Below, in pieces: positions 6,527 to 61,131 of a stretch of 64,000 nt of DNA (position 1 is the first letter of the stretch; each line of letters opens with the position of its first letter). Origin of the DNA: an uncultured Methanosarcinales archaeon (lineage in GTDB: Archaea; Nanobdellota; Nanobdellia; Woesearchaeales; CAYVYK01); assembly GCA_964455675.1 (NCBI GenBank), contig CAYVYK010000010.1, positions 1-64,000 on the forward strand. The letters run 5' to 3'. The position numbers were made by a program, and so were the translations under genes. The notes beneath the pieces were generated by a model. The model was not told the DNA's origin. It was given only the letters and a program-made list of their open reading frames with translations, and did no database searches.

Positions 6527-6693
6527 GGGGAATACTGGACACCCACCGTTCAGATAGACGGATGGTTCCCCAGCCCCTTGTGGAATTGCGCGCGTGATAG
6601 CTTAGGAGCTTGTTCTGAACAGAGTGACCGTGGTTGCCCTGTTCCATGACCAAATTATGCAAGGAACAGGGCGTGCCGTCAGGCCGTAATAAG
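6527..6693 (+). repeat. Dispersed structured element, copy A (37-nt core hairpin 6636-6672)
   Basis: GGGGAATACTG...GGTTCCCC..TGTGGAA...GCCCTGTTCC-N17-GGAACAGGGC-GTGCCGTCAGGCCGTAATAA; outer boundaries approximate. Confidence 0.9.
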
Positions 6694-6821
6694 TTTTGTA
6701 GTGTTTATCCTTTTCCATGGAAAGGTCGTACTCTTAGGCCACAACAGTATGTTTAGGAAGGTCTTTGTCATCAATCCACCATCCAAAAGGTTTTTAAAAC
6801 CCCGCCCACCTGTAAAGATAT

Positions 6822-7034
6822 ATGCCAAAGACGAGCAAGGAGCACGACATTGGATACAACAAGGGAGCGCTTGACGTTCTCGCAAAGGAACGTGAGGAAC
6901 TCATCAGGATTGTCTCTATCGTCGAGCAGATCATGGCGATGCATACCCAGAAACTTCAGGATCTTGGCGTTGAGATGGGCGGCCAGTGGGCGAAGCCCAA
7001 GGGTACGGACAAGCCCATTGATGATCTCATATGA
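6822..7034 (+). CDS. Small hypothetical protein
   Basis: 70-aa ORF, ATGA-coupled to DUF371. Confidence 0.7.
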   Translation: MPKTSKEHDIGYNKGALDVLAKEREELIRIVSIVEQIMAMHTQKLQDLGVEMGGQWAKPKGTDKPIDDLI

Positions 7035-7432
7035 GATACTCATTCTTCGCGTATGGTCATGAGAACATTCGAGCAACGCATAAGAATACGCTAGAGTTCA
7101 CAAAGGAAAAGGACCTCTCGCCATCGGGCGACTGTATTTGCGGTGTGCGGTCCACATTCGATCCGATGAAAGCAAGGCCGCTGCTCAAGTGCCAGCTACT
7201 GCATGTTACAATCAGCTTTTCACATCACGTTCTGTCATTTACTGCTATTCCAAATCCTTCGTTTTCCGCTGACGAAATGGTGTTCCGAAGGGGCGACTTT
7301 CTGTCGGACAGGACAATTGGTACGCGCGCGACGAAGGCGTGCAATGATATTCCGAGGGACTTGGTTCCCATCCTTCGCGATCCAAAGACAAAGATTGAGG
7401 TCAGTATCGATGAAGCGCCTATCCAAGAGTGA
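7031..7432 (+). CDS. DUF371 family protein
   Basis: GHENIRATHKNTLEFTKE..LSPSGDCI. Confidence 0.9.
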   Translation: MRYSFFAYGHENIRATHKNTLEFTKEKDLSPSGDCICGVRSTFDPMKARPLLKCQLLHVTISFSHHVLSFTAIPNPSFSADEMVFRRGDFLSDRTIGTRATKACNDIPRDLVPILRDPKTKIEVSIDEAPIQE

Positions 7433-7841
7433 GATTAAGGACTTGAACGTAACTTTGGAAAGTTTTGGTCTCGTATTTGACAGAAAGGACATTCTCGAGG
7501 AGTCCGATCGGTTCATCCGTAAAGACGGCAAGGCTGTTCTATTTTTTCATGAGGGCAGGTGGCTTCCTTCGCTTCACGCAATTGCATCACTAAAATCCGT
7601 GAGGATTGATAAGGGTGCGATTCCGTTCATGCTCAAAGGCGCTGATGTCATGCGTCCGGGTATTACGTCGTGGGATGAGAGTATCAAGGAAGGTGACCTC
7701 ATCGCAATTCAGGATGAGGCGCATCGTAAATCTGTCGCGCTTGGTATTGCGCTCATGGGTTCAGAAGACCTGGCTGTGCAGAAGGTAGGGAAAGCCGTGA
7801 AGAATATTCATTTTGTAGGCGACGAGATCTGGAACGCTTAG
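7410..7841 (+). CDS. PUA-domain RNA-binding protein
   Basis: IDKGAIPFMLKGADVMRPGI...HFVGDEIW; start moved to ATG 7410. Confidence 0.9.
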   Translation: MKRLSKSEIKDLNVTLESFGLVFDRKDILEESDRFIRKDGKAVLFFHEGRWLPSLHAIASLKSVRIDKGAIPFMLKGADVMRPGITSWDESIKEGDLIAIQDEAHRKSVALGIALMGSEDLAVQKVGKAVKNIHFVGDEIWNA

Positions 7842-9304
7842 CCTTCGTGCAGAAGAGTGACGTTATTCGAGCGGCTTTTTCGCGGTATGCCTGACGATGT
7901 CTTGAATCTGACGAGTGCAGATGGCAGAAGGTAGCTTCCAACGATCGGCAGTTTGGAGCGTACCTTGTAGACCACGACGCGTTCATCTCCACCTTCGAGT
8001 GGGTCGATTGACCACTTGATGATCGTGCCCTTATGCTCATGGGAGAGTACTTTTTCGGGCGATTGTGTTCCTAGCTGTTCCTCCCTGATGACTGTTGCGA
8101 TGTTAGACACGCGGTCAATGAGCGCGATTTCACCGACTCGTCCTCTGCTTCTGTTACGGACGTTCAGCACTATCTTGATCTCCGATATGCCGCCATGCGC
8201 ATGCTGCAGGACTCGTGCGCTCTTGCGAACGACAACGGGGCTGCGAAACACAAGGTAGAGGAGATAGATGACAACGATGAGAATGATGAGGAATGCGAGC
8301 GGCCGGTAGCTCGTGCTGTAGGTGATTGTCTGTGTCTCGCCGACGTCGAGTCTCACATCCCATTTCCACTGTCTCTCTCGGTTGACTTCGGCGACGGATG
8401 GGTCAGGGATTGCTGTTGAGAATTTTCCCTTAATGCCTGACATGGGAACGAAGTAGCTTTCCACGCGCGGAGAATTTCCTTTGTTGATGAATGTGATGGT
8501 CGTTGTGCTCCACATGAATCCGCTGCTTTTCTCTTCGCGCTTTTCAACATCCTGGTATGGCACGATTTGATACGTAAGTGGCTCTGTCTTGAATGAGTAT
8601 ACGTTGTCTTCCGTCGTGATGAAGATGTCGATAACAACATGGTCCACTGCGGGTTCTTGCTGCCGATCAGGGAACTCGAATTTCATCTCGAGAGTTTTTT
8701 CCGAACCAAGTTCTCCTCGAGGCTCAAGATTCGTGCTGTATTCTCGCGTGAAGAAGTCGCTTGTCACAACGACCTTGACGAGTGGCAGCGCACGCCTATT
8801 GAGGTTTTCGAGTTTGAGGTCAATTTCAAGTGGGGATCTTGGGTCAACACGGTCATTCTTGAGAACGGCGTTGTACCTGATCTCTGGTGTGTAAGGTAGA
8901 TTGGGAATTTCGACCGGAAGGACATCAACGTACAAGTCTTTCTTGATGGTTTCTCCTGTCGTGAGTGATTTTACGAAGAGTGAGACTGCGCGTGCGCCAA
9001 AGGGCATGGTTGCGCTCGGCCGCAGTGTGAGTTCGATTTCGCTTTTTTGCAGGGGTGAAAGTGAGAGTGGATTCGCATTGGTTGGTTTGATGTCGACTCC
9101 CCATTCCACATCGAGGAATGAGATGAGATAGGAGTCGGAGATTGTCCCGCGGTTGTATACCATTGCTTTGTAGACTGCGCTTTCATTGCGCATGATCCTG
9201 CTTTTGATGGGTAGGACATCCACATCAAACATCGCTGCCGCAAGAACACTGCTCGGAAGGAGTAATGCCAAAAATACGATGATAGATACTCGCCCAAAGC
9301 CCAT
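7838..9304 (-). CDS. Secreted/membrane protein with Ig-like domains (COG1470-like)
   Basis: Signal peptide, beta-rich domains, TM segment near C-terminus. Confidence 0.7.
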   Translation of the reverse strand: MGFGRVSIIVFLALLLPSSVLAAAMFDVDVLPIKSRIMRNESAVYKAMVYNRGTISDSYLISFLDVEWGVDIKPTNANPLSLSPLQKSEIELTLRPSATMPFGARAVSLFVKSLTTGETIKKDLYVDVLPVEIPNLPYTPEIRYNAVLKNDRVDPRSPLEIDLKLENLNRRALPLVKVVVTSDFFTREYSTNLEPRGELGSEKTLEMKFEFPDRQQEPAVDHVVIDIFITTEDNVYSFKTEPLTYQIVPYQDVEKREEKSSGFMWSTTTITFINKGNSPRVESYFVPMSGIKGKFSTAIPDPSVAEVNRERQWKWDVRLDVGETQTITYSTSYRPLAFLIILIVVIYLLYLVFRSPVVVRKSARVLQHAHGGISEIKIVLNVRNRSRGRVGEIALIDRVSNIATVIREEQLGTQSPEKVLSHEHKGTIIKWSIDPLEGGDERVVVYKVRSKLPIVGSYLLPSALVRFKTSSGIPRKSRSNNVTLLHEG

Positions 9305-9377
9305 GTGTTGCGCCCTCCAGTATATAATACTACACAATCCTATCCTAGTTTCCTGATATATAAACTTTTCTAAAGGG

Positions 9378-9539
9378 CTATTTCGGAATCCTTGGGAGCA
9401 CGAGGAACGCAATAAGGGCTACGGCAATGATGACTCCCCAGAAGATCTTCCAGTCAAGCTTGACAAATGAGAATAGTGCAAGGTTTGCTAGTAGGATCAG
9501 GATGAGGATTGCACCTAAGATTTGAATGGTTTTGACCAT
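9378..9539 (-). CDS. Small 2-TM membrane protein (53 aa)
   Basis: Manual translation MVKTIQILGAILILILLANLALFSFVKLDWKIFWGVIIAVALIAFLVLPRIPK*. Confidence 0.7.
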   Translation of the reverse strand: MVKTIQILGAILILILLANLALFSFVKLDWKIFWGVIIAVALIAFLVLPRIPK

Positions 9540-9588
9540 GAGCCATTAACATGGAGTTTGGCTAATAAACTTTACCAATTTCTCCAAT

Positions 9589-9780
9589 GGGAGGAATACT
9601 GCCCGAATACCGAACTCGTGAAGTGGTTCCCCCACTGTGGAACCGTCCGTGAACTTGATTATTGGTTGTGCGCATTCAAATAGCAATCGCCCTGTTCCGT
9701 GACCGAAGGCAGCAAGGAACAGGGCGTGCCGTCAGGCCGCAATAATGAGTTTTGAGTGTCATGAATTGTACCGCTCATCG
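9589..9780 (+). repeat. Dispersed structured element, copy B (core hairpin 9689-9725)
   Basis: GGAATACTG, GGTTCC..TGTGGAACC, GCCCTGTTCC-N17-GGAACAGGGC, GTGCCGTCAGGCCGCAATAAT, TGTACCGCTC tail. Confidence 0.9.
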
Positions 9781-9820
9781 TCAGCCCGCAATACACCTAT
9801 TCCGACAACAGCATCCTTTA

Positions 9821-9843
9821 AACAGGGCCGAAGGCTCGCAATA
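9821..9843 (+). repeat. Partial copy of structured element (B')
   Basis: AACAGGGCCGAAGGCTCGCAATA. Confidence 0.65.
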
Positions 9844-9925
9844 GTGCTTCATTATGAACGAAGGTTCTGCGAACAAAGCTCACAAAAAAGTATGATGTGT
9901 TTCCGATCAGTGCTCTTGTGAGTAT

Positions 9926-11476
9926 TTACTCCTTCGTCTCCGTTTCCCGCGCTAGGTTTCGCACTTGCACCTTGATGTTCTCAAGGATCGCTTCCTGGTG
10001 CGCGCCGACGAATCTGATCGTTCCAGCTACTTCATGTCCGCCGCCATCGACGTTCGCTTCGGGTATTTGCGCCTTGAGCGTTTCGATGATCTTTGCGACG
10101 GGTAGCACGGGTTTCGTTGCCCTGATGATGATCATGTCGGACAAGAGCCCTAGCGTGATGATCGGCTGGTCTTCCCGTCCATCCTTGATGATATCATGGA
10201 TGTTGCCGATCAGTTTTCCAGGCGTTGGGAACTGGAACCGGAGTGTGTATTTCTCAAGGTCGATGTATGACAGTGTGATGTTTCCGATCGTGAACGTGCG
10301 CAGATATGGTAGTGTTGACTGCAGCTGTAGTTCGGTGCTTTCTTTCACTTTCTCATTGATGAGGCTCGTGAATTCCGGTACTGAGAATATTTTCTCGTAG
10401 GTTTTGCGTCCGCTGTCAAACTTCAGGTGGTATGCGAGGAAGTCGATCGCGATCACGAGATGCATGAGTTCCTCCCTGCTCTTGCCTGAGCGTTTCAGAT
10501 ATTCGTCGCCCTCGGGTGTGTTCACCCTATCGCCGATGACGCTGACGGCAGGATAGATCAGATTCTCAAAGTTCTCATGGATCATTCGTGCGATCTCGTA
10601 GCATTCAAGTCCCGCGGCGATGGTGCCATCAAGGCCCTCCATGTAGGGATTCACATGGTCGAGCAAGTACGGGCACACGCTTGTTTTCTTTCCGTGCATC
10701 ACGACAGGATTGTGATGGTCGATGACGATGACGTCATACCCGAGCGATTTCGCTGTGCGTAACGCGAAGATGTCTTCCGGTGTTGATCCGTTGTCAAGCA
10801 CGAGCACGAGTGGTTTCCTGCCAAATGGTGCAAGCACTCGTTCGGACAGGCTAACGTCCCGTAGGAAGTCCGCGAATTCGTAGAACGGCGCGCGTGATGG
10901 GCTTCGGTAGAGATAGTGCTCGCTCTCAAGCCCGATCTCTTGCATGAGCATTTCGCAGCTTTTCTCGATGCTCATTCCTGCCATGATGCCGTCTGCATCA
11001 GCGTGGTGTCTGATGATGATTGCCTGATGGTTTAGGATTGCTTTTCGGATTTTGTGCGCGATGCGGATGAAGTAAGGCCGGAGCTTCTCATAGGATGCTG
11101 ACCGAACTGAGAGTTCCGTGCGCACTGGGTGCGATAGCTTTTCGATATGCGCATCAAAATCATGTGTGGATGCCTTCATATCCCTTGCTTCAATCTGCAG
11201 TCGTCCAGAATATTCCGTGACCGCTCCCTGGATTTCCACAATGTCTCCGACGTTAAATGTCGTGCGGGATATCGTTGCGTCCATGGAGTACATCCCGTCC
11301 GTTACCGTAAGGATGGTCTTTGCTGCCTGGAATTTTCGTGTTATTTTCACGGGGCCTGCAAAGTAGTCCCCGACTTTTAAGCTCTCAAGTGAGTGCTTGG
11401 TTTCCTGCTCGCGGTTTGGATCGCTGCTGTCCATAAGCCTGCGGCTAGGTTTGTTGAATTTGTTGTATGTATTCAT
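9926..11476 (-). CDS. RecJ-like DHH/DHHA1 nuclease with N-terminal OB fold
   Basis: RHHADADG, LDNGS, IDHH, GGGHEVAG. Confidence 0.85.
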   Translation of the reverse strand: MNTYNKFNKPSRRLMDSSDPNREQETKHSLESLKVGDYFAGPVKITRKFQAAKTILTVTDGMYSMDATISRTTFNVGDIVEIQGAVTEYSGRLQIEARDMKASTHDFDAHIEKLSHPVRTELSVRSASYEKLRPYFIRIAHKIRKAILNHQAIIIRHHADADGIMAGMSIEKSCEMLMQEIGLESEHYLYRSPSRAPFYEFADFLRDVSLSERVLAPFGRKPLVLVLDNGSTPEDIFALRTAKSLGYDVIVIDHHNPVVMHGKKTSVCPYLLDHVNPYMEGLDGTIAAGLECYEIARMIHENFENLIYPAVSVIGDRVNTPEGDEYLKRSGKSREELMHLVIAIDFLAYHLKFDSGRKTYEKIFSVPEFTSLINEKVKESTELQLQSTLPYLRTFTIGNITLSYIDLEKYTLRFQFPTPGKLIGNIHDIIKDGREDQPIITLGLLSDMIIIRATKPVLPVAKIIETLKAQIPEANVDGGGHEVAGTIRFVGAHQEAILENIKVQVRNLARETETKE

Positions 11477-11650
11477 GTTAATACCTCTGAAAAAGAACTA
11501 TTGTCGCCAGCGAGTGCTGGTCAATGTAAACGTCTTTTTCTCTCGTATGAGAATAATGGAGTGAACTCCCCTTTATAAATCTATCGTTTAACAGCGACGG
11601 TGAGTAGCCAGACGGTGCCACAGACGGAGTTGGAGGGGCAGTTGATAGTA

Positions 11651-11765
11651 CCCTTTGTAGAATTGTTTCCCTGCGAGCGCGCAGTTCTGCCCAAAAAGAT
11701 AGTAATTGCCCTGTCCATCGATCGTGAAAGGGAGGGGACAGGGCGTGCCGAAGGCTCGTAATAAG
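11651..11765 (+). repeat. Dispersed structured element, copy C (core hairpin 11708-11744)
   Basis: CCCTTTGTAGAATTG...GCCCTGTCC-N19-GGACAGGGC-GTGCCGAAGGCTCGTAATAA. Confidence 0.85.
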
Positions 11766-11805
11766 AAGTATGGGTAAAGATGGTCCGCGGCTACAAGTGA
11801 ATGAT

Positions 11806-15330: not shown

Positions 15331-15407
15331 ACCCCGGTTGCTACCATTTTGTACGGAATTCAACCCAAACCCCAAGGTAGAGTGATACCAAGCTACACTA
15401 CGGCCCC
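15312..15407 (-). tRNA. tRNA-Pro(GGG) with 23-nt intron at 37/38 (intron 15347-15369)
   Basis: GGGGCCG/CGGCCCC acceptor stem; CTACC-TT-GGG-G[intron]T-GGTAG anticodon arm; GTTCAAATC T-loop. Confidence 0.9.
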
Positions 15408-19753: not shown

Positions 19754-21016
19754 TCACTCCTGGAAATAGCTTTTTTTTGGTTTCTTTGGCTCGCGGGTTT
19801 GTGTTCTCGCGATGGTTTTGCGCACGCCCCAGATGATGAGTACGATTGCGATAAGCGCAAATCCGATGATCGCCCAGGTTAGCGGTCGCTCTGGCCTAGC
19901 GTTTGCGACGACAACAGGTATTTTTTTGCTGTACGTGAGCACGTCTTCGCCAACGACATTCTTTATCTCGAGGTCGAGGTAGTAGGTCTGGACGTGCGCG
20001 TCGTCGTTGATGTCAAAGGCGAGCGTTGCCTGCCCGGTTTCTCCGCTCTCCAGGATTGGCGCGATGAAGTCGCTTGATTCGTCGAACTTGAATGGCTGAT
20101 CGCTTTTGCCATACACTTTCAGTCGAACGGACTCGCCTTTCTCTTCTCCGATGTTCTTCACAGTTATGAGCACTTTAACGTCACGGTCGCCTGCTGTTAG
20201 CGATTCAGGTGTGAATACTGCACTGACGATCTCGTAGAGTGGAACGGGACGGATGCTGATCTTCATTGGTATCGTGCGCTGTTCTGTGAGGTATGTTTCC
20301 TCCTCCTGGTCGGGCTTGTATTTGTAGTCAAGCTTGAGCTGCGCGAGGTATTCTCCAGGTTTTACTGTTTCGTCAACATCAATGTAAAATGTTGCGGACG
20401 ATGTGCTGTCTGCACCGATGTTTCCAAGAAGTGAGAGTCCACCATATGATTCGGGAAGCGTGATTCCGCTTGGAAGACCAGCAAGTTCCGCTCGGACATT
20501 CTGTGCGGTGCCATCGCCGATATTGAGGAGTGTGACATCAAGCTTCACGTTCTCATCTCCTGGCTTGATGCGCAAAGGATCTGAATCAAGCGTTCCGATG
20601 GCAAGGTCCACTTCGAGGAGTTCCCGCTCTTCAACGTTGATGTAGAGGTTCGTTTGGGATTCTTCGGTGTCTGAGATGACTTTTGCCTGAATGAGGTTTT
20701 GTCCCTCCGTTGCTTCGCTCCTCACCCGTAGCCGGTACTCAAGTGATTGCGTGCCATATCCCCGAAGGAGTCCGATACGGGTTCGAGCGGGCTGGCCTGT
20801 GGATAGCTCAAGTCCGTCACGCGGAATGATTTCAAGGTACGTGTTGTCCGATGCCTCGACGGAAGGGTTCTCCACCTTAAACCACACGGTCACGATCTTT
20901 CCGGACTCTGCGGGTTTAGGATCGTAGGTCTCCACGGAAACACGGAGGGCCATTGCTGATGTTGCGCTGCTGATTACGATCAATAAACAAACGATGGTTA
21001 GGACGATTTTATTCAT
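19754..21016 (-). CDS. COG1361 S-layer-domain-like protein
   Basis: Signal peptide, three Ig-like repeats (NIGDGTAQNV), C-terminal TM plus basic tail. Confidence 0.8.
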   Translation of the reverse strand: MNKIVLTIVCLLIVISSATSAMALRVSVETYDPKPAESGKIVTVWFKVENPSVEASDNTYLEIIPRDGLELSTGQPARTRIGLLRGYGTQSLEYRLRVRSEATEGQNLIQAKVISDTEESQTNLYINVEERELLEVDLAIGTLDSDPLRIKPGDENVKLDVTLLNIGDGTAQNVRAELAGLPSGITLPESYGGLSLLGNIGADSTSSATFYIDVDETVKPGEYLAQLKLDYKYKPDQEEETYLTEQRTIPMKISIRPVPLYEIVSAVFTPESLTAGDRDVKVLITVKNIGEEKGESVRLKVYGKSDQPFKFDESSDFIAPILESGETGQATLAFDINDDAHVQTYYLDLEIKNVVGEDVLTYSKKIPVVVANARPERPLTWAIIGFALIAIVLIIWGVRKTIARTQTREPKKPKKSYFQE

Positions 21017-23298
21017 GGTTTCACCTTGTGTGTTTTATAGACGATTGAGAGTATTGCTGGAACGATAAGAACACATGAGAAGAACGTGAACATCATACCC
21101 AGCGTGAGCGTTAGTCCGAGCCGTTTTGTTGCAAGGAGCGATGCAAGTGTCAGGGCAAGAAACCCGATCATGGTGGTTATCGTGCTGAGGAAAAGTGACT
21201 CACCGATTGTGGTGATCGTGCGCCGTAGCGCTTCGTTGGGCTTCATTCCTTCCTTGATGCTTCGCTCGGTACTGTGCATGATGTGGATGCTGTAGTCGAT
21301 TCCTGCGCCCATCAGGATTGCAAGCATTCCTGTGGTAAGGACAGTGAATGGAAGGTTAACATAGCCCATGGTTCCGATTGTCCACGCGATCGCGAAGAAT
21401 ATGGGGACGAATGCAAGCAGTCCCCGAACGATGGATCGGAAGAACAATGATGCAATGATGAAAACGAGTGCGAATCCAAGGAGCGTCGTGAGCATCATGC
21501 TGTCATTGATTGTCTTGTCAAGTTCAATGTCTTCCGCAAATCCTCCCTGAGGGATGATCGTAACACCGGTTGGGAGCCGTATCCCCTCGATCTCGCCAAG
21601 CACCTCATAATATTGCTCTCGATCAGTGAACGTGTTGCTTCGTAACGCGACGAGCATGATACTGTAGTCTCTGTTGTACATTTGTTTCGTTTCAGGATGT
21701 TCGGCCATGATCCGCTGTACTTGCTCGAACGTTTGGGGTATCCTTCCTTCATTAATATTCTTGATAGTGTCGGCGGGGCTATCGACAGAGTCGATGTATT
21801 TCAGCCGTTCAAGTGTCGCATCAATGTCCGCGACTGATTGGAGGACTCTTGGGTCTCGAAGGTCAGTGACTGCCTGCTCACCTGATTCTGTATTCTTGTC
21901 AATCATGACAAGGAAGTTTTGTGAATCCACACCGCCAAAATTGTATCCTACTTTGTCGAGTGATTCCCAAACGGGATCATTCTTGGGAAGCCAGTTGTCG
22001 TTGCTCGTGTCCATTCGTACAAGGCCTAGTCCAGGGATTGCAATTACAGTGAGGGCAATAACGGTAACAAGGACGTGATAAGGCCTGCGGGTAATGAGAA
22101 CCGCAAGCCAAGTGAGTACCCGTTTGAGCATCTGATTGCTGCGTGTCTTTTGTTCTCCTCTGATAGTAAAGATCGCCTCGTCAAGTCTTGAGTATACAAG
22201 CTTGCGCTGGAGCACAAGGATCGCAGGAAGCACAAGGATGCTCGTGATAAAGGCATAAGTTATACCTAAAGCGAGGACGATGCCTTGTGTGACCGATAGA
22301 GGGCTTCCTCCAGCGGTCATAGCAAGAAACCCCGCGACTGTCGTCAGGAATGATGCGAAGAGCGCAGACCCCACTGCGACGACAGTGTAATGCGTCGGAT
22401 TCCTTTCGCCTCTCCTGACTGCGTGGTTGTATCCGTGCGTCATATGGATGGCGTAGTCGACTCCAAGGCCTACCATCATTGCTCCGACGCTTGCAATCAT
22501 CATGGTGATCCTTATGCCAAGGAGGCTCATCGTCCCCGCAAGCCAGATAAGGACGAGCACCACGGGGAGTACAGATACGATACCTATGCGGACTGAACGG
22601 AATGAGATGGAAAGGACAATAAGGACGAAAAACAGTGCGATGCCGATCGTTGAGATATTGTCGTTGATCAGGAGGTTCATGATTCGGTTGAGGAGTGTGG
22701 GAAGTCCCGTGAGTGTTGTCTTCATGCCGTTGATCTTTGGTGCATTAATGATGCGTTCGTTGATGGCATCCTCAAGGTTCTCGAGCGCGCCGGGTTGAGT
22801 TTCAACGTTCACCGTAACGATCATGTTCAATAACCGATAGTCCTGGGAGACAAGGCTGCTCGTGTCGCCGAGAAGTGCGAGCATTTCCTTACTTTCCTCG
22901 AGTGTTTCGGGCAGCCGTCCATACCTCGCTCGCAGTACATCTGCAATGCAGAGGACATCGCTGACACTTGACTCGGCCCTGATGCTTCGTGCAAGATCCT
23001 CCGTTGCGGACAGTACGGATGGTTCTCGGATGTCGCGCACTGCGGTGACATCATTGATAGACTCATCGATCTCTATGAGGATAAACAGCCTGTCGGATTG
23101 GCCGAATTCATCGGATACGAGCCTACCGAGAATTCGAGTATCAGAATCTTCTCGGTAGAGTGTGTCAAAGTTGCTGTCCGTCCCGATTCGCACCGCGTAG
23201 TAAGAGAGAAATAAGGTGATTGTCAGCACTCCAAGAAGCCAGAGTACTGGGTATCGTTCTTGTAGGTCTGCTGCTTTTTCAAGTGAGCGCTTCAGCAC
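21013..23298 (-). CDS. MMPL/RND superfamily transporter
   Basis: Duplicated GLGVDYAIH / GAGIDYSIH motifs; likely GTG start at 23298 after GGGGTG RBS. Confidence 0.9.
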   Translation of the reverse strand: MLKRSLEKAADLQERYPVLWLLGVLTITLFLSYYAVRIGTDSNFDTLYREDSDTRILGRLVSDEFGQSDRLFILIEIDESINDVTAVRDIREPSVLSATEDLARSIRAESSVSDVLCIADVLRARYGRLPETLEESKEMLALLGDTSSLVSQDYRLLNMIVTVNVETQPGALENLEDAINERIINAPKINGMKTTLTGLPTLLNRIMNLLINDNISTIGIALFFVLIVLSISFRSVRIGIVSVLPVVLVLIWLAGTMSLLGIRITMMIASVGAMMVGLGVDYAIHMTHGYNHAVRRGERNPTHYTVVAVGSALFASFLTTVAGFLAMTAGGSPLSVTQGIVLALGITYAFITSILVLPAILVLQRKLVYSRLDEAIFTIRGEQKTRSNQMLKRVLTWLAVLITRRPYHVLVTVIALTVIAIPGLGLVRMDTSNDNWLPKNDPVWESLDKVGYNFGGVDSQNFLVMIDKNTESGEQAVTDLRDPRVLQSVADIDATLERLKYIDSVDSPADTIKNINEGRIPQTFEQVQRIMAEHPETKQMYNRDYSIMLVALRSNTFTDREQYYEVLGEIEGIRLPTGVTIIPQGGFAEDIELDKTINDSMMLTTLLGFALVFIIASLFFRSIVRGLLAFVPIFFAIAWTIGTMGYVNLPFTVLTTGMLAILMGAGIDYSIHIMHSTERSIKEGMKPNEALRRTITTIGESLFLSTITTMIGFLALTLASLLATKRLGLTLTLGMMFTFFSCVLIVPAILSIVYKTHKVKP

Positions 23299-23459
23299 GA
23301 GGTTACACCCCAAAAGATAGTCAAGAGAGCCCTCTTTTGATTTATAAATATTGTGTAAAGTGTTCAATAGGATTCAATAGAATTCACGTCATTAGGTTCA
23401 TCATGCCTGGAGGCAAGTATGCCGACGGATTTATAAGCAGGATTTCACGCCTCCTTGGT

Positions 23460-28083: not shown

Positions 28084-28088
28084 GGTTT

Positions 28089-29917: not shown

Positions 29918-30142
29918 GTACTAGTATCACTAGTAGAGAATATTTAAACCTTTCTGCGTGTTCATGCTCATGCCTTCCGCCCTCGCGTAATGTGTTGCAT
30001 GCCTGTAGAGGGTGCTTGTGTGGTTAGTGTACAGATTTACATCCGATTTCGATCGAACGAACAGAGGAGAATGTGCGGGAATATGCGTTCGAAAACAGAT
30101 AATTTTATATGCAAATTGGGAGGTTATGCAGGTTGAACAGGG

Positions 30143-31531: not shown

Positions 31532-32529
31532 CTAATAGATGCTTTCGAGGATTGCGCGGATGATTGGCGGCGTGATAACGACCGGATTGTTTGCGATTCT
31601 CTGAGGATTGGAGCTTTCCTCAACTAAGAGTTCAAGATCATTCCTCGGAACGCCAAGTGCTGATAGTCTGCGTGGTAATTGCATCTGGTCCATCAGGTGC
31701 TCAAGGTATTCTTTCGCCTCAGTTGCGTTCGCGACATGAAGCAGTTCGANNNNNNNNNNNNNNNNNNNNNNNNNNNNNNNNNNNNNNNNNNNNNNNNNNN
31801 NNNNNNNNNNNNNNNNNNNNNNNNNNNNNNNNNNNNNNNNNNNNNNNNNATTAGTGTCGGATTCGTAACGGCTTGGAGAGCATTCGGAAGAAGGAGGGAC
31901 AAAGCTTGCGCCGCGTATGTTTGTGACACGCTTGTCGAGTTCACAGACCAATAGGACTCAATCGCCTGCGAGATTGCGTCGGCTGCTGTCGCGGCGGTAA
32001 TGGCAGGACTTAGTGACAAGGTAAGTTGCGGATCAAGGACGATCCACTGGGGAACCATGGAGGGGTGCTCCAGGCTGTACTTCGTTTCTCCCTTGTAGAC
32101 GACGGCAAATGGGGTGATTTCTGCCCCGCTTCCGGCAGTCGTGGGTATGAGGATTTTTGGTATCCGTGAACCTCTTGCCTTCTTCGAACCGAGAATGTAA
32201 TCATCAAGGGGTCCATCTTCAGAGGAAAGGAGAGTTCCTGCTTTTGCGGCGTCTAGGACGCTCCCGCCTCCAACCGCAATCACAAGGTCATATCCTCCTT
32301 TTCGGATGGTATCGGCGACCATGCGGACTTGGTCGAGCCTCAGCATGCTGTGAAATCCCTCGACCCGTTTCACATAGCAGTGCAGAAGCTGCGGTGAAAG
32401 AGCCTCCTGTGCTCCGCTCTGTTCATAGGATTTTCCGCCGGTGACAAGGAGGATGCGCTGCGCATGCGTCTCCTTGAGCGCGTTCGCAACGTTCTTGATG
32501 GATTCTGCTCCCTCATAGATCGTGACCAT
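31532..32529 (-). CDS. Iron-containing alcohol dehydrogenase, probable phosphonoacetaldehyde reductase (spans gap)
   Basis: GGGSVLDAAK, PTTAGSGAE, QAIESYWS, C-terminal RIANNP; cluster context. Confidence 0.85.
31750..31849. other. Assembly gap (100 N)
   Basis: Run of n. Confidence 1.
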
Positions 32530-33236: not shown

Positions 33237-33240
33237 GGTG

Positions 33241-40292: not shown

Positions 40293-40350
40293 GCCCTTTT
40301 CCCTGCGCGCATGCAGCAAGGAAAAGGGCTCGCCGAAGGCTCGTAATGCT
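40293..40350 (+). repeat. Dispersed structured element, copy D (core hairpin 40293-40329)
   Basis: GCCCTTTTCC-N17-GGAAAAGGGC-TCGCCGAAGGCTCGTAAT; compensatory G-C to T-A change. Confidence 0.9.
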
Positions 40351-40400
40351 GATGGAGTTTTGAGGACTAACCGAGAAGGATTAGTTGAGAAGGAATATGA

Positions 40401-40589
40401 TCAATTAATGCAGCATCCCGAGAAGAGATGCCTGCCCATGATCATAGGAGCGGTATGGTTGAGTGAGTAGTCCTGGTCTGCTCTGTCATACATTTGGACA
40501 TGGTGGTCCATAAGATCATGGAACGTCAGATTGGGGAGCTTCCGCTGCGAAAACAACGGCTCCACAATTTCTCGTAGCGTGCTTGTCAT
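40401..40589 (-). CDS. Small hypothetical protein, possibly a fragment
   Basis: AAGGTGA RBS-like sequence before ATG 40589. Confidence 0.35.
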   Translation of the reverse strand: MTSTLREIVEPLFSQRKLPNLTFHDLMDHHVQMYDRADQDYSLNHTAPMIMGRHLFSGCCIN

Positions 40590-40601
40590 GGGTTTCACCT
40601 T

Positions 40602-40637
40602 AAAAAAAAGCTGTTGGGAGACGGTGTCTCCCAACAG
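40602..40637 (-). terminator. Hairpin + U-tract terminator
   Basis: Perfect 12-bp stem CTGTTGGGAGAC/GTCTCCCAACAG followed on the minus strand by CTTTTTTTT. Confidence 0.75.
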
Positions 40638-41340: not shown

Positions 41341-41553
41341 GCGCGCCCTCCGGGGTCCCAGCTGCTCTTGCTGAGATTGATAACTACCCCCTCAATGGAT
41401 ATAGTAGTTGGAGCATTGATATATAATTAATCATTATATTTTATTAAGATTATATAGTTATTAGTAACTAATACGAATTACGAAATTTATAAGGAATTAC
41501 AAGGTTTTTGGAAACGTTTATATACCAATGAATATTGAGGTTCTATCTGTGGG

Positions 41554-56400: not shown

Positions 56401-56654
56401 AGCCGTACGTGGCTCGGATTGAGTTCCGTATCGCTGTCTGTGTACACTGCCGCGGTAAACGTCGTGTTGTCCTGCATCTTGCGATATCCGGAAATTGCGG
56501 ACGCGCTCTGGATCGATGTGAGTTCAACGTTTGCTGCAAGTGCCGCGCTCACGTGGAATGGTATTGTGAGGACGAGCGTAATCATCATGAGCGCTGCAAG
56601 TTCAAGTGTTGTGAGCCAGATTTTTCTCTGTTCCGGTGCTGGTTTATCGTTCAT
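53472..56654 (-). CDS. Large surface protein with Ig-like repeats and Cys-rich helical C-terminus
   Basis: ATG 56654; TM leader; DRTAP/DSTGP/DVDSP linkers. Confidence 0.8.
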   Translation of the reverse strand: MNDKPAPEQRKIWLTTLELAALMMITLVLTIPFHVSAALAANVELTSIQSASAISGYRKMQDNTTFTAAVYTDSDTELNPSHVRLNNAPFDSCSNTGARAYQCSKEYSGRMNPGPFRFVLQLVEGLRVLATDTQTITVDGAGAGITLSISPERSTNGTVTIIYEASDTSHAGGTGCVGVGRIELFETDLTSSPFKTLTPNSASCTARGTEEYTQAQEGTTRICARAYDRFNQTSGDACSSFTIDRTAPQPQRAVLNDGNGNEIRLVTNREVPASIMVNISTDDGIGGIAGTITNINTRETYTNRIPRICTAYTDHVECIWDVTVLLNSTSTPSIAVVTVDSTGNRMETSLALNTIEVDSTGPRFAQITTDKHPVSGGSGYYAGSTTTFTADIREPNGISNDSIFLDLSGIGRSSTQVADGCTSKGGETYECVWNDILISMPTGTNAIVRGSPFSVDNLGNPSTELAPINITVDVDSPIAVSANMRIVKGENTFEQYLVRGDRLEINITMRDSGEYVIGTMNASQLMDVSPIMDVACVTLGNSTHSCVFLTPIIDISGPKEATIYFILKDDVGNEVRYHMPVFLSGLLEDAVQNHWTNTVICSPSKIDRQVTSLGNGQKMYCHVGLSPISTGAETLSIGLEDGACRPSTNDTNATSPLNYITSIQLLNNQRESRDPYLAIQLATMDMKVDSLDITCPLSIFSSVGNSITAIPEQEDVRFTVLFYNLPLGDLRKELNQKYKDAKEDATSGLWKVIEILSMIVRYARIICVLNNILQNLIGIYQTVTQQLGHVEAANKLNPVSGPPTHAARVKMCLATEGARDEGNKWFNIFNQFCNFVNCKMSLPGAGAGTFEKWSSWLGGGLGDKWIPQYYPGVGFLDKVTGMNYKTYMNGKESLAMSVLTLCLPGILYNLDKIRQIKCAKAVCLKDAITTGIPASACEELEETLMCKYVFGEIFQLIPFVALFDYYMNMIKAMLSDPFAIVGAILALTCLPHCANPISEGPHSACVWFKVVSMIGEVVGDVMFLMDENTWKAKGDYCRYLKDTKSKTDNSAKTDTDRVVV

Positions 56655-58842
56655 AGGTGGGCACAAGGAGTGCTTCTGTTCCAATTGGTGCTGTTTCAAC
56701 ATAGTCGAGGGCCTGGAGGTCCTCAACGGTTGTGACGTCCACGAGTGCTGGTGCGAATGCGTAGAATACGATTCGTCCGCTGTGGAGGTCCGCGTCTGTG
56801 AATGTGTATGTTGTCTTTGATCCTCCTGAGATGAATTTTTTCTTTCCTCCGCCAAGTTCAATGCGTGGTATTGTGTAACATTCTTCTTTGATGAACGCAT
56901 CAACGCATCGCTCTTCTTCCTCGATCGCGAATGGTTCTTCGCTCATGATCCGGACTTCGATGTTGTAGCGTCCTGGCGCAATCCTGATGGGGTTCATTTC
57001 GTCCTTGTCGACGCTTCCTAGTGCGTGCAGCTGCTGGTCGAATTCCGAGTCATTCCTTTCAAGGATCACGATCGCTTGCTCAAAAGGATTGATGGGCTGT
57101 TCTGTTGGCTGCACGATCCATTCGTCGTTGTGTTTGACCATGAGCCGTTTTTTGACGGTGAAATTGTAGAATTCCAGGTGTGAGAGTTCGATGCTGACGT
57201 TTGATGCTTTTCCCTTGAAGGCGTCAAGCGGGACTGTCTTTCCAAGGTATTCGGGATGATTCACGCCAAGGAGTCCTCCAAGGCACACGGGTAGTCTTGT
57301 GACGAGCATTCCTTCTTCGTCCGTTGCTCCGATGGCGCACGTTTGGCTGGCGCAGCTGTACGTTATTGCTGCGTCACTGACTGGCTTTTGAATGGCAATG
57401 GTTGCGACTCTCACGGTTCCTGACGTGCGCTTATCCATGTCGCAGAGCATTGTCTTTGTGGCGAGCTGTTGCTCAGTGCATTCTCGTTGTTGTTCAACTT
57501 TCTGGGTTTGCTCTCCACTGATCGGGTCGGTGACATTGACGATTCGTTCGTCCATGACGGTGCACACGAGTTCCACGTCGCGCGTGGGGGCTGTTGGGAG
57601 GAAGAAGAAGTCTTTCGTGAATGGTTTGTTGTTGCGCACGTTTGCTTCGAGATAGTACCTGAATGTGTATCCTTTTCCGTTGAATGCGTCTTCGTCGTAT
57701 ATTTCCACTTGTACGGGGAAGGATACATCATATGCGAAGTGGTAGCGCTGCACACCGATGGGGAAGATGATATTTGACATCACGCTTTGGGGCACGCAGA
57801 GTTCTCCTTTGCAGTTGAGGTCAAAATAGATCGGCCACCAGTCAAGGTATGCGAATGTGACGGCGAGGTCTTCAAATCCTTTTTTCATCGGGACGCGCAT
57901 GCCTTCGTTAAAGACTGACTCGCGCAACGGATCATTCGGGAACTGGTGTTCGTGGTAGGTTTTTGTCTGGTACACTTGGAGGAGCGGGATGTATCCCATG
58001 AGCATGTCTTCAACATGTTGTGCAACCTCGCTCTTGATCCAGAATGTGCTTGGCGCGTAGTCAAGCGAGCTGTCGGTCATGGGCGGGATATTTTTCTTTC
58101 GCCCGGAAAATCCGACGAGGAGGTTGAGCGTGTCTTCCTCGATGAACTGGTAGCTTTTTTCTAGGTCCGCGATGGATCCTGCAAGGTCGTAGATGTGCTT
58201 GAGCCGCACCGGGAGCCTGACGCCAAATTCGCTCACACTCTGTTCTGAGTCTCCATGCCTTGCCTGCACGGGGAGTTGCACAACGACCGCGACATCTTCC
58301 TCGGTGATTGTCACATCGGTTGAGAGCGGGCCTGTCTGCTCGACGGCAAGGCCCGCTTCTGCAAGGCCCGTAAAGTCTTCAAGGCATGCGGGCAATTCTT
58401 GTGTGATGTAGGTTTCAAGCTGTTCCTCGATACTCATGCCGGTTCCCCGCAGACCTGGCCGTTTGCTGCTGAACACGCACTGTTCCCTGCATTCATTTGG
58501 CGTCTGCATGTAAAACCAGTACGGGGCTAAAAGTCCTCCTGGACTGGCAACGACGTCGGATTCTGTTGGAACGAGTTCATTGATCGAGAAGAGTTGGGGA
58601 TCAAGTGTGGTATAGCCTCCTTGCATTCCGACTTTTCGTACTCCTTCCTCACCGATCTGTCGAAGGCATACTTCAACAAATGTCTGGAGCGGCTGGTATG
58701 GAGCGGGCAGCTTGATTGCTGGTATGTTCACGGCAGCTTTTTCCTGACGGTCAAGGTATATGGAGATTCCGACACCTACGATAACCAGGAGAAGTATTCC
58801 TACGAATATGAAAATGGTGATTTGTCCTCGTTTAAAGTACAT
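56644..58842 (-). CDS. Large protein with class III (pilin-like) signal peptide
   Basis: MYFKRG|QITIFIFVGILLL. Confidence 0.8.
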   Translation of the reverse strand: MYFKRGQITIFIFVGILLLVIVGVGISIYLDRQEKAAVNIPAIKLPAPYQPLQTFVEVCLRQIGEEGVRKVGMQGGYTTLDPQLFSINELVPTESDVVASPGGLLAPYWFYMQTPNECREQCVFSSKRPGLRGTGMSIEEQLETYITQELPACLEDFTGLAEAGLAVEQTGPLSTDVTITEEDVAVVVQLPVQARHGDSEQSVSEFGVRLPVRLKHIYDLAGSIADLEKSYQFIEEDTLNLLVGFSGRKKNIPPMTDSSLDYAPSTFWIKSEVAQHVEDMLMGYIPLLQVYQTKTYHEHQFPNDPLRESVFNEGMRVPMKKGFEDLAVTFAYLDWWPIYFDLNCKGELCVPQSVMSNIIFPIGVQRYHFAYDVSFPVQVEIYDEDAFNGKGYTFRYYLEANVRNNKPFTKDFFFLPTAPTRDVELVCTVMDERIVNVTDPISGEQTQKVEQQRECTEQQLATKTMLCDMDKRTSGTVRVATIAIQKPVSDAAITYSCASQTCAIGATDEEGMLVTRLPVCLGGLLGVNHPEYLGKTVPLDAFKGKASNVSIELSHLEFYNFTVKKRLMVKHNDEWIVQPTEQPINPFEQAIVILERNDSEFDQQLHALGSVDKDEMNPIRIAPGRYNIEVRIMSEEPFAIEEEERCVDAFIKEECYTIPRIELGGGKKKFISGGSKTTYTFTDADLHSGRIVFYAFAPALVDVTTVEDLQALDYVETAPIGTEALLVPTYER

Positions 58843-59735: not shown

Positions 59736-60644
59736 TTATGCGTGCATGATCGTAAAGTATGGTCCGTAGAGTTCACCGACGTGCGTAATAACGCTTCCAA
59801 GCTGGCTCACGATATACACATCAAGCTTGGATGATTTCTGTAGTGTGACGGGGTAGAGTTCAGACAGTTTCTGCCGTAGTTCCAGGAATTCTCGCGCCTT
59901 GTCCTTATCAAATTTATAGTAGAGTTCGTACATGATCTTGATGAATCGTGCTGTTTCGGTATAGAGTTTTTCAGTCGATGGATTGATTTTTACCTTCTTG
60001 GAAAGCGCGTGTTTGGCAATGTCTCGGTAGCAGTCTGCGATCTTTTCGAAGTCCCTGCACATGCTGTAGTACAGCGTTGCTTTCGAGCTTTCGAAATACG
60101 CGTGCTTGTTGATGACTCGTTTTAGGAAGTCGGTGAGCTTGTTGTTCGTTCGTTCGCCGTCAAGCGCCGCTCGCAATTTGTGTTCATCAGAAGTCTTGAG
60201 TGCGATCAAGAGCTCCTCGGTCATTTCGATGAGCAGCCGAAACATCCGCCGGAACACGGCGTGGAATTCCTCGGGGGATACGCTTGACACGCTTCGTATC
60301 ACACATGATCCTTTGCGTTTTTCGACGATCTCAAAGCCCATGAGGTCGCTCACTTTGTTCTTGAGCTCATCATACATCCTCTCATCGTCGAAGAAAACAG
60401 TCACCTCGTCATACCCTTTTTGGTAGAAATATGAGATATAGTTCTTGTCGAACTTTCCAAGGCTCTGTACAACAAGCTCTGACTTTTTCATGTCTGGTTG
60501 GTGCGAGAATGATATGAGGATTCCCCCCTCATGTTCGCTCACATGCACGTCCTGTCCTTTCTTCACTGCGTATTTCTTCACAAACGGCGTAGGGAGGCTG
60601 ACAACAAGCGTCCTTCCTGCAATCTGGATGACCTTCCGCTCCAT
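59736..60644 (-). CDS. AbrB-PhoU family regulator
   Basis: MERKVIQIAGRTLVVSLP, GYDE, FEKIAD. Confidence 0.9.
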   Translation of the reverse strand: MERKVIQIAGRTLVVSLPTPFVKKYAVKKGQDVHVSEHEGGILISFSHQPDMKKSELVVQSLGKFDKNYISYFYQKGYDEVTVFFDDERMYDELKNKVSDLMGFEIVEKRKGSCVIRSVSSVSPEEFHAVFRRMFRLLIEMTEELLIALKTSDEHKLRAALDGERTNNKLTDFLKRVINKHAYFESSKATLYYSMCRDFEKIADCYRDIAKHALSKKVKINPSTEKLYTETARFIKIMYELYYKFDKDKAREFLELRQKLSELYPVTLQKSSKLDVYIVSQLGSVITHVGELYGPYFTIMHA

Positions 60645-60742
60645 ATCCGTCGAGAATGCAATATATCTTATAAGGATTTCTCAATCAGCAGAGGAATGAA
60701 CTCAAAAGCATTGGACTATGAGCACAGTTCCAGTCCACAGCA

Positions 60743-60835
60743 GCCCTGTTCGAAGAATGTGGTGTGCGGCGAACAGGACGTGCCGTCAGGCTGCAATAAT
60801 GTGGTTTGGGCGTCATTGAAGTGAACCACTCACCC
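60743..60835 (+). repeat. Dispersed structured element, copy E (core hairpin 60743-60779)
   Basis: GCCCTGTTCG-N17-CGAACAGGAC-GTGCCGTCAGGCTGCAATAAT; compensatory C-G to G-C change. Confidence 0.85.
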
Positions 60836-60876
60836 AAGGTTTGCATTCATCCATCATTTTGCCCACTTTAATCATA

Positions 60877-61044
60877 GGGGGGAATAATGGAATTCGCCCT
60901 GCACGTACTTCCGATGGTTCCCCACCCCCTTGTGGAAATGTGTGCGTGACGGCTAGCGCGCGGTTGTGCGTGGTGCATCAGTTATCGCCCTGTCCATCGA
61001 TCGTTGAGTGGCAAGGGCAGGGCTCGCCGAAGGCCCGTACTAAT
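60877..61044 (+). repeat. Dispersed structured element, copy F (core hairpin 60987-61023)
   Basis: GGGGAATAATGG..GATGGTTCCCCA..CCCCTTGTGGAA..GCCCTGTCC-N19-GGGCAGGGC-TCGCCGAAGGCCCGTAC. Confidence 0.9.
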
Positions 61045-61066
61045 TTTTTACATATGATTTTCAAAA

Positions 61067-61131
61067 CGAACAGGTCGTGCCGTCAGGCCGCAGTAATTAT
61101 TTTTTAGCGTTATGCAGTGTACCGCTCGTCG
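61067..61131 (+). repeat. Partial copy G of structured element (right arm + tail)
   Basis: CGAACAGGTCGTGCCGTCAGGCCGCAGTAAT...TGTACCGCTCGTCG. Confidence 0.8.

Follow-up and report, generated by a model that had tools for sequence, protein, structure and literature searches.

The chromosome of an uncultured, deep-branching DPANN archaeon resembling Woesearchaeota/Nanoarchaeia carries a family of short non-coding repeats, each with one conserved hairpin, dispersed between genes. Eight modules of the family (A to H) lie at five loci in the window, the whole 64-kb stretch of DNA that was analysed. The family matches no catalogued family; Rfam was searched, and other named systems were compared by their features. 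We favor, with a probability of roughly 0.45, the interpretation that it is a lineage-restricted, non-autonomous, non-coding hairpin repeat family of the REP/PATE kind. A structured RNA family is the main rival. The genomes of DPANN archaea are very small and densely packed with genes. Little literature on DPANN repeats was found, and none on intergenic repetitive elements of Woesearchaeota. If the family is mobile, it would be a sign that a single-strand transposition system is, or until recently was, active in the host lineage; if it is transcribed, it would be a new archaeal RNA family. In either case its covariance model can serve as a concrete probe of the complete genome and of its relatives.

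A degenerate 24-nt signature, CAGGGCKYGCCGWMRGSYCGYAAT, was searched for on both strands of the 64 kb, allowing up to 3 mismatches, with 100 shuffles as a control. All seven matches are on the + strand (6667, 9720, 11739, 40324, 60774, 61018 and 61071); none is expected by chance and none occurred in the 100 shuffles. The covariance model, run at every position of both strands, gives the six complete cores 68-84 bits, G 19.8 bits and H 17.7 bits. The best unrelated match has 11.6 bits (E=0.43), and the 64 kb contain no further copies. Matches on the minus strand are palindromic stems only. A scan of genome contigs for relatives of the element returned chance matches only. The six cores and the partial copies reported in the initial annotation are all present where it placed them. 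One of its partial copies, G, does lack the 5' stem arm; the other, H, turned out to have a whole but decayed core (9794-9828).

The unit consists of a 5' domain of ~110 nt followed by one to three head-to-tail modules of ~50 nt each. Units span about 170-250 nt, and the full-length copies (A, B, C and F) are ~175 nt long. In each module a 10-bp hairpin with a variable loop of ~17 nt is followed by a 3-bp GCC/GGC hairpin and then by CGYAAT. The six cores align without gaps across 70 columns, so every core is exactly 37 nt long, as had been noticed at the outset. The small hairpin (GCC-GTCA-GGC or GCC-GAA-GGC) and the CGYAAT-like motif, previously described as following each core, are found in all eight modules. 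The two sub-types, defined by a small loop of GTCA or GAA, combine mosaically with the core types. The downstream tail that B, E and G were said to have in common is borne out by the alignments (B and G are 83.6% identical over 67 nt, B and E 74%).

The 5' domain is present in four copies. The earlier description of this extension was correct for A, B and F and incomplete in that the diverged copy C carries it too (66.4 bits); D and E have no match to the 5' domain at E<=10. A left hairpin, GGTTCC/GGAAYY, is found in A, B and F and is degenerate in C, with no covariation. Apical GTTCC/GGAAC pairs occur both in this hairpin and in the core, much as the ends of an IS200/IS605 element are similar, although this is a resemblance only. 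At their left junctions, A, B, C and F have a loose T-rich YTTYW in common and no fixed tetra- or pentanucleotide. The right end is CGYAAT-like, with an approximate boundary.

All copies described here are on the + strand. Copy A (6517..6697) is full length and scores 81.5 bits with the core model and 82.4 bits with the 5' domain. Its 5' domain (6517-6635) is followed by the core (6636-6672) and by GCC-GTCA-GGC and CGTAAT (6673-6690). Behind it lies A2 (6716..6744), a decayed second 3' module, which the covariance model misses at E<=10; its local alignment to B1 scores 26, as reached in 1 of 200 shuffles. Copy B (9581..9777; core model 84 bits, 5' domain 69.2 bits) is full length and has the tail. 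It comprises the 5' domain (9581-9688), the core (9689-9725), GCC-GTCA-GGC with CGCAAT (9726-9743) and the tail to 9777. It is followed by B2 (9779..9791), a remnant, CGTCAGCCCGCAA, of the small hairpin and CGCAA that is identical to B1 at 12 of 13 bases, a score reached in 1 of 200 shuffles. Next comes H (9794..9843; 17.7 bits, E=0.0049, 0 of 200 shuffles), a decayed whole module in which a 35-nt core (9794-9828) with 5 of 10 pairs left precedes CCGAAGGCTCGCAAT. Copy C (11589..11769; core 78.8 bits, 5' domain 66.4 bits) is full length with a diverged 5' domain; its core occupies 11708-11744, and GCC-GAA-GGC with CGTAAT extends to 11762.

Copy D (40293..40352; 68 bits) is a core module alone, with the core at 40293-40329 and GCC-GAA-GGC and CGTAAT to 40347. 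Copy E (60743..60832; 71.3 bits) is a core module with the tail but without the 5' domain, and its core (60743-60779) has a C-A mismatch at pair 2. Copy F (60869..61048; core 74.8 bits, 5' domain 80.8 bits) is again full length. It contains the 5' domain (60869-60986), the core (60987-61023) with U-G at pair 7, and GCC-GAA-GGC with CGTACT to 61041. Behind F is G (61065..61131; 19.8 bits, E=0.001, 0 of 200 shuffles), a 3' module with the tail and without the 5' stem arm. Copy A aligns to F and G together over 233 nt with 66% identity.

Decayed 3' modules thus follow A (A2), B (B2 and H) and F (G) head-to-tail, forming a graded series of decayed and partial pieces directly downstream of intact copies. 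A retro-mobilized, SINE-like element, copied via RNA by a reverse transcriptase encoded elsewhere, would produce such a series, because reverse transcription that begins at a fixed 3' end and stops early gives nested, 5'-truncated copies. The 3' motif is indeed present in every module while the 5' extent varies, from ~175 nt in A, B, C and F to the core only in D and E, ~50 nt in H, ~30 nt in G and A2 and 13 nt in B2, and truncated copies lie behind intact ones. The series comprises only 10 pieces, however, and decay by deletion explains it equally well. Furthermore, the 67 ORFs of the window include no reverse transcriptase, the copies have neither an A-rich or other defined 3' tail nor a target duplication, no promoter for making the RNA was detected, and Rfam gave no group II intron signal even in searches of 60500-61300 and 6400-11900 at E<=10. 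This origin is therefore very unlikely.

The loci are five unrelated intergenic sites, whose neighbors encode a kinase, a RecJ-like DHH protein, an M48 peptidase, a PhoU-like protein and UDG. Every copy lies between ORFs, and the family is dispersed, both as initially described. It occupies the largest true intergenic gaps of the 64 kb. A density of five loci in 64 kb, in the largest gaps, is typical for selfish repeats and not for RNA genes. Copies and modules are about 60-85% identical in pairwise comparison; the copies, at 62-85% identity, are hence old and carry no sign of recent movement.

In the six copies, 57 of the 60 cells of the 10-bp core stem are paired. Double changes are found at three of the ten stem pairs, and five pairs are invariant. 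The compensatory changes reported for D and E and the T-G pair in F are all real; pair 8, which is U-A in A, B, D and E and C-G in C and F, is the third double change. The covariation score, which is based on six related sequences and one helix, was reached in 2 of 500 shuffles. When the register is slid, only 33-52% of cells are paired. The core loops diverge without any indel while the stem stays paired. The initial annotation had proposed that structure and length are selected. Pairing kept through double changes and the 37-nt span speak for this proposal; the evidence comes, however, from a single helix in related copies. The small hairpin is invariant and therefore uninformative on covariation, and the 5' domain yielded no supported helix.

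A constant 37-bp span with a freely diverging spacer might also be expected of double-stranded DNA sites for a dimeric regulator or chromatin protein, with two 10-bp half-sites at a fixed spacing of 17 bp. The five invariant stem pairs indicate that sequence is conserved besides pairing, as such sites would demand. Three symmetric double changes, however, fit base pairing more easily than the sequence preference of a homodimer. Neither the 110-nt 5' domain nor the conserved, asymmetric 3' motif would be accounted for, and the single orientation of all copies also speaks against such sites, which have the slimmest chance of the explanations weighed here.

The strand on which the hairpin might act is ambiguous. 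RNA folding energies of the 37-nt core favor the + strand in two of six copies and the minus strand in four, and full-length folds favor the + strand in three of four copies. The T-G pair of F had been taken to favor folding of the + strand. This inference fails because the C-A mismatch at pair 2 of E, which had been overlooked, becomes U-G on the minus strand and cancels the U-G of F. Whole-unit folds are not unusually stable (z = -2.2, -1.6, -0.7 and 0.0).

All eight modules are on the + strand and neighboring modules are all head-to-tail; the GC skew in the window never changes sign. The earlier statement that the copies point the same way is accurate as such. The co-orientation is weaker than it appears, however, because the eight modules lie in only five independent loci (two-sided p ~0.06). 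It is also confounded with gene direction, since all five loci have a minus-strand gene on their left.

The main rival holds that the family is a multicopy structured ncRNA, an sRNA or RNA scaffold made from the + strand, in which the hairpin and a single-stranded CGYAAU would serve as functional features of the RNA, while the decayed modules would be dead gene copies. Pairing maintained through the double changes, an exact span despite diverging loops, the G-U pairs in the left hairpin of A and the core of F, and the + strand preference of the full-length folds agree with it. Furthermore, runs of T4-T6 that could stop archaeal RNA polymerase lie within ~15 nt after CGYAAT in five of eight modules (A, B, D, F and G), but in B, E and G the conserved tail extends beyond the T run. 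A promoter matrix was trained on 16 of the window's own TATA promoters, which score 9.4-20.3 bits. It finds no + strand TATA/BRE above 5 bits at -25 to -35 of any of the four full-length copies, which weighs against independent RNA genes; the nearest + strand promoter-like match (7.2 bits) is ~70 nt upstream of B. Further points against an RNA family are the contradictory strand signal of the cores, the single supported helix with unremarkable whole-unit folds, the very high density and the decayed copies, which are as numerous as the intact ones. Within the window, complementarity to the loops does not exceed that seen with shuffled controls.

Searches against known families did not favor an RNA either. 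With Rfam 15 (4227 models), the whole window at the gathering threshold yielded two tRNAs only, so that the family is unnamed among Rfam families, as the initial annotation had supposed. Lax searches (E<=10) of 60500-61300 and 6400-11900 gave three matches each, all far below the gathering score; just one of them covers a core, namely mir-764, with 19 bits where the gathering score is 82. As for the protein-coding signal that was to be looked for, no consistent reading frame exists across the copies. Taken together, a structured RNA is unlikely, though its claim is appreciable. It is improbable that the modules are the scaffold of an undescribed, DPANN-specific structured RNA class on a self-propagating element, possibly guide-RNA-like in the manner of omega-RNA or bridge RNA. 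The varying 17-nt loop or the 3' flank would then program a nuclease or recombinase whose gene lies in another part of the genome. None of the omega-RNA-type models in Rfam matches the window.

The position of the loci raises the possibility of a host cis-element on minus-strand transcripts, whatever its origin: a 3'-end stabilizer, terminator or insulator hairpin between the stop of one gene and the next promoter, a role that REPs play in bacteria. At all five loci, 25-76 nt separate the end of the array from the stop codon of the minus-strand ORF on the right; two of these five ORFs (6771..7076 and 40401..40634) have an open frame as their sole support. The arrays of C, D and E are upstream of the TATA box of the left-hand gene (minus-strand scores of 12.7, 9.4 and 10.5 bits), and the core energies slightly favor the minus strand in four of six copies. 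However, T6 runs of the minus strand separate the UDG stop from G (61139-61144) and the RecJ-like stop from H (9884-9889), so the UDG and RecJ-like transcripts probably end before the element. On the minus strand, the G-U pairs in the left hairpin of A and the core of F turn into A-C mismatches. Most genes in the window lack an element of this kind. The chance that the family is such a cis-element is small.

If the family is a hairpin repeat of the REP/PATE kind, as we prefer, the conserved hairpin and adjacent motif would be the recognition structure for a copying agent. The likeliest agent would be an HUH/Y1-type single-strand DNA transposase in the style of IS200/IS605 or REP/RAYT, whose gene would lie elsewhere and which would act in trans. 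Pairing and spacing would be retained while the loop drifts, terminal inverted repeats (TIRs) and target duplications would be absent, copies would be co-oriented, and new copies would insert beside old ones, leaving decayed tandem remnants. Mobility, the single-strand mechanism and the enzyme are all inferred. Several observations count against the REP/PATE interpretation. The 67 ORFs of the window encode no transposase, reverse transcriptase or integrase, the lack of a transposase being as first reported, and RAYT and tnpA/tnpB are likewise absent from them. The left junction has no fixed motif, the copies are old, the 5' domain is unaccounted for, and the 17-nt loop and strict head-to-tail order are unlike the REPs in the accounts consulted here. 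The host may also have put the copies to a secondary use, for instance at transcript ends.

Classical MITEs resemble the family in being non-coding, intergenic and multi-copy and in their length (~170-250 nt). An inverted-repeat scan of the five loci found internal hairpins only and no TIR common to the copies; one 11-nt inverted pair (9533-9543 / 9773-9783) occurs at B alone. None of the six units, whose boundaries are approximate, has a target-site duplication (TSD) above chance: the longest direct repeats across the junctions, of 4-6 nt, were reached in 21 to 284 of 300 shuffles. The lack of a common TIR and of a TSD argues against classical MITEs and fits elements of the IS200/IS605 or REP type.

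Integron attC sites have the core sites RYYYAAC ... GTTRRRY. The whole window contains no such pair at a spacing of 35-130 nt on either strand, there is no integrase among its 67 ORFs, and the flanking genes are housekeeping genes. A CRISPR array was also rejected: similarity among the modules is 60-85% and they decay in the course of each array, the sequence ahead of each first module is conserved too and forms pairs with it, and the 67 ORFs have no cas domain.

REPs, in the portion of PMC3733652 used here, end in a GTAG or CGTC tag, have stems of ~8-9 bp and loops of 4-5 nt, and occur mostly as head-to-head or tail-to-tail dimers; the phyla given there for its two families are bacterial. On that description, the family differs in its 37-nt core with a 17-nt loop within a 175-250-nt unit, and in having no inverted dimers, since neighbors are all head-to-tail. 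GTAG flanks none of the six cores, and CGTC flanks three of six, inside the small hairpin and 5 nt off the stem. Within the same compass, the family is like REP/REPIN/BIME elements and their RAYTs in having a G+C-rich hairpin of <40 nt, intergenic and mostly just downstream of coding regions. Like them it is clustered, has sub-families distinguished by stem, loop and tail, and consists of old copies with no recent burst.

The family also has a parallel in PATEs, the protein-less derivatives of IS200/IS605; PATE-like derivatives that are mobilized in trans appear in the sections of PMC10055086 (Meers et al.) considered here. Compared with what is said of them there, the family differs in its 17-nt hairpin loop and in the decayed modules in head-to-tail arrays. 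Furthermore, no IS200/IS605 tnpA/tnpB with the family's ends was seen in the window, and no target-adjacent or end motif could be fixed for the family. On the same partial account, it resembles PATEs in being short, non-coding, multi-copy, intergenic and co-oriented, without TIR or TSD, and in having no transposase nearby, so that any mobilization would occur in trans. The likeness may extend to the hairpins, with a well-supported one near the right end and a second, putative one in the left part with the same apical pairs.

The repeat in the window is a real, lineage-restricted hairpin repeat that matches no catalogued family. Its six complete core hairpins, A to F (6636-6672, 9689-9725, 11708-11744, 40293-40329, 60743-60779 and 60987-61023), and the partial copies at 9821 and 61067 were all recovered where the initial annotation had placed them. 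Each core spans exactly 37 nt, as had been claimed, and the six align without gaps over 70 columns. A 24-nt degenerate signature, made up of the stem end, the small GCC/GGC hairpin and the CGYAAT motif, matched the window seven times with up to three mismatches allowed. All seven matches lie on the + strand; 100 shuffled sequences contained none. The 70-nt covariance model of the hairpin module, R1, was scored at every position of the window on both strands. The six cores reached 68-84 bits, and two partial modules, G and H, reached 19.8 bits (E=0.001) and 17.7 bits (E=0.005). The remaining R1 matches are palindromic stems read in reverse, and the top unrelated site scored 11.6 bits. When the five intergenic regions were compared with the complete window by sensitive blastn, no further pieces emerged, and every match was plus to plus.

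The overall architecture of the unit was delineated with R2, a model that uses sequence alone and covers the ~110 nt located 5' of the core. R2 matched four sites in the window at 66-82 bits, those of A, B and F and that of C, which has diverged, with the runner-up site at 5 bits. This gives four full-length units, each about 175 nt long. The upstream extension described earlier for A, B and F is therefore present, but C, its fourth carrier, had been missed. In D and E the core module stands without the 5' domain; what looked like a GAATAC-type 5' domain on the upstream side of both was discarded because R2 has no match there at E<=10. At D, a plausible membrane ORF of 95 aa overlaps that region. 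The nested 5' truncations among the copies suggest a retro-copied, SINE-like element. This reading is nevertheless quite improbable, and no reverse transcriptase, integrase or Cas domain was found in the 67 ORFs scanned. The same ORFs contain no transposase, in agreement with the initial annotation.

Decayed 3' modules are positioned directly downstream of intact copies, in identical orientation. They are A2 (6716-6744), B2 (9779-9791), H (9794-9843) and G (61065-61131), all on the + strand, and no more than 1 of 200 shuffles equaled or exceeded the score of each. Further modules picked out by eye (C2, D2, E2 and G2) are at chance level, being equaled by 129-200 of 200 shuffles. A with A2 can be aligned to F with G over 233 nt, so that the layout of a unit plus a second module is itself common to both. 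The tail reported to be common to B, E and G is present and is the beginning of the second module. The small hairpin occurs in two sub-types, with a GTCA loop in A, B, E and G and a GAA loop in C, D, F and H. These sub-types combine in mosaic fashion with two core types.

In the 10-bp core stem, pairing holds in 57 of 60 cells across the six copies, and five of the pairs are invariant. Double changes are found at three pairs: U-A at pair 6 in D, C-G at pair 8 in C and F, and G-C at pair 10 in E. Pair 7 varies on one side only, giving a U-G wobble in F; the sole departure at pair 2 is a C-A mismatch in E, and pair 10 is unpaired in C and F. Of 500 shuffles, only 2 reached the covariation score of the stem, and when the partner strand was slid to other registers, pairing was 33-52%. 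One alignment, A7, was left out of the pair counts because it mixes true copies with minus-strand palindrome matches. Covariation lends real support to base pairing of the core stem. It comes from a single helix in six sequences that are related, to which the program's caveat on relatedness applies, and its strength had been overstated. The small GCC/GGC hairpin is invariant and is therefore neither supported nor contradicted. The four sequences of the 5' domain lend support to none of its helices. A long-range pairing between GCGTGACGGC in the 5' domain of F and GCCGTCAGGC in G, matching at 9 of 10 positions, was rejected, as B and C do not preserve it. The four whole units are not markedly more stable than shuffled sequences (fold z-scores of -2.2, -1.6, -0.7 and 0.0).

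The T-G pair of F had been taken as a sign that the + strand folds. It is offset by the C-A of E at pair 2, which becomes a U-G when the minus strand is read, so that the two cancel as strand evidence. By RNA folding energy, the 37-nt core favors the + strand in C and F and the minus strand in A, B, D and E; the full-length units of A, C and F favor the + strand and that of B the minus strand. The left hairpin of A, GGTTCC/GGAATT, requires two G-U pairs on the + strand. A duplex protein-binding site is a very improbable alternative. The single orientation noted earlier holds for all copies, but there are only five independent loci (p ~0.06) and orientation is confounded with gene direction. 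GC skew is positive across the whole window, so that the window contains no replication switch against which co-orientation could be set.

Several known kinds of element were considered and set aside. The initial annotation had recognized no named family. Six-frame translation of the six copies gave stops in most frames and no common open frame, and an Rfam scan of the whole window at the gathering threshold returned two tRNAs only; lax Rfam scans of the element loci gave chance-level matches. A classical MITE does not fit, as no terminal inverted repeat is common to the copies and target duplication is not above chance in 6 of 6 units. The window has no attC core-site pair. With regard to a tagged REP, GTAG flanks none of the six cores, and CGTC flanks three, displaced from the stem. 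The modules are 60-85% alike and accompanied by no cas genes, unlike a CRISPR array. If the 17-nt loops were guides, complementarity elsewhere in the window might be expected, but the best is 13/17 per loop, equal to that of shuffled loops. C/D-box, H/ACA and K-turn motif bits were seen, by eye, in A only. A DGR target would lie at the 3' end of a coding region, and none of the copies does so; nor does their co-oriented spread over 55 kb suit a replication-origin ORB.

Relatives were sought in 185,579 species-representative genomes with the exact pattern MAGGGCKYGCCGWMRGSYCGYAMT, which fits 5 of the 7 window signatures and would miss diverged relatives. Nine single matches were found in G+C-rich bacteria. 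Under R1 these score 16.2-29.6 bits, compared with 68-84 bits for true copies, and the proper hairpin is absent; they are chance matches, about four being expected by our estimate from the pattern's information content. With no true match, the window's own genome is not in the collection and no representative has the exact signature. The nearest relatives are so distant that this null says little about distribution. Copy B had no blastn match in plasmid and phage collections. Copies were also sought by way of spurious ORFs: the open minus frame over A matched none of 5.8 billion clusters, and a profile of the single + frame open across the six cores matched two of 1.84 billion representatives, both of them long repeat proteins of low complexity with no relation to the element.

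The window, part of a contig of about 70.5 kb, is archaeal. For two of its proteins, the nearest named homologues carry the label Woesearchaeota or Nanoarchaeia. The best foreign identities, 76% for NucS and 58% for a RecJ-like protein, indicate a poorly sampled DPANN lineage. The window proteome is not acidic. A tRNA gene at 15311-15407 (-; Rfam 48 bits), its anticodon not named by ARAGORN, has a 27-nt anticodon-loop insertion, an archaeal-type intron. Runs of 100 N at 1418-1517 and 31750-31849 are masked stretches or scaffold gaps, the second inside an Fe-ADH-like ORF (31693..32529). The cluster at 26959-33912 encodes a PEP mutase-cytidylyltransferase fusion, a TPP enzyme, an Fe-alcohol dehydrogenase, three CDP-alcohol phosphatidyltransferases and a methyltransferase, and looks like a phosphonate head group or phosphonolipid pathway. 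The 784-aa ORF at 23220-25574 (+) combines glutamine amidotransferase, asparagine synthase and Diphthami_syn_2 (diphthamide synthase) domains; its listed start overlaps an MMPL-family ORF (21013..23367) by ~150 nt, and the true start is probably further downstream. Four large minus-strand ORFs, three of them consecutive, have no Pfam match at E<=1e-4 (42439-44997, 50671-53475, 53472-56903 and 56644-58842; 852, 934, 1143 and 732 aa).

The genes flanking the element are unrelated housekeeping genes, among them those for a kinase, RecJ-like and M48 proteins, PhoU and UDG. At all five loci the left-hand gene is on the minus strand, with its start 53-169 nt from the element, and 25-76 nt separate the end of the array from the stop of a right-hand minus-strand ORF, two of these ORFs being only predicted. 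This arrangement would suit a host 3'-end or insulator element acting on minus-strand transcripts, an improbable reading. A promoter matrix trained on 16 of the window's own TATA/BRE boxes found no + strand promoter before any of the four full-length copies; by the same matrix, strong minus-strand boxes of the left-hand genes adjoin C, D and E. About 25 genes have a very regular BRE+TATA of consensus AAAAAGATTTAAATA 15-60 nt before their start codons (for example 12705/13353, 33241/33995 and 56644/58940), several of these boxes serve divergent gene pairs back-to-back, and many genes are apparently leaderless or nearly so. The paralogues at 41554-42480 (+) and 59736-60644 (-) have AbrB/MazE-type and PhoU domains. 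E is 99 nt upstream of the second; directly upstream of the first, at 41395-41530, are ~130 nt of near-pure A+T, which may act as an unwinding element or as a strong promoter region. An Orc1/Cdc6 gene was not seen within the window.

The initial annotation had proposed either a multicopy ncRNA or a REP/PATE-like ssDNA element. Its observation stands with corrections and its interpretation in part, with the strand inference and the weight of covariation reduced. A structured RNA family, the main rival, is less likely. A selfish repeat is favored over RNA genes because the copies occupy five unrelated intergenic sites at very high density, form sub-types and mosaics, have no promoter, and include as many decayed as intact members. 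The repeat would then move by single-strand, hairpin-recognizing transposition of the IS200/IS605, PATE or REP kind. This fits the lack of TIR and TSD, the near-end hairpin that keeps both sequence and pairing, the second hairpin with the same apical GTTCC/GGAAC pairs, and the one orientation throughout. A selfish hairpin repeat transposed as ssDNA is accordingly our tentative reading, at a probability of roughly 45%; it concerns how the element works, not membership in a named family. Protein-less derivatives mobilized in trans are on record for the IS200/IS605/PATE kind (PMC10055086). REP sequences, as described in PMC3733652, carry a terminal tag, form inverted dimers and have only a small loop, whereas the present element is a hairpin repeat with none of these features.
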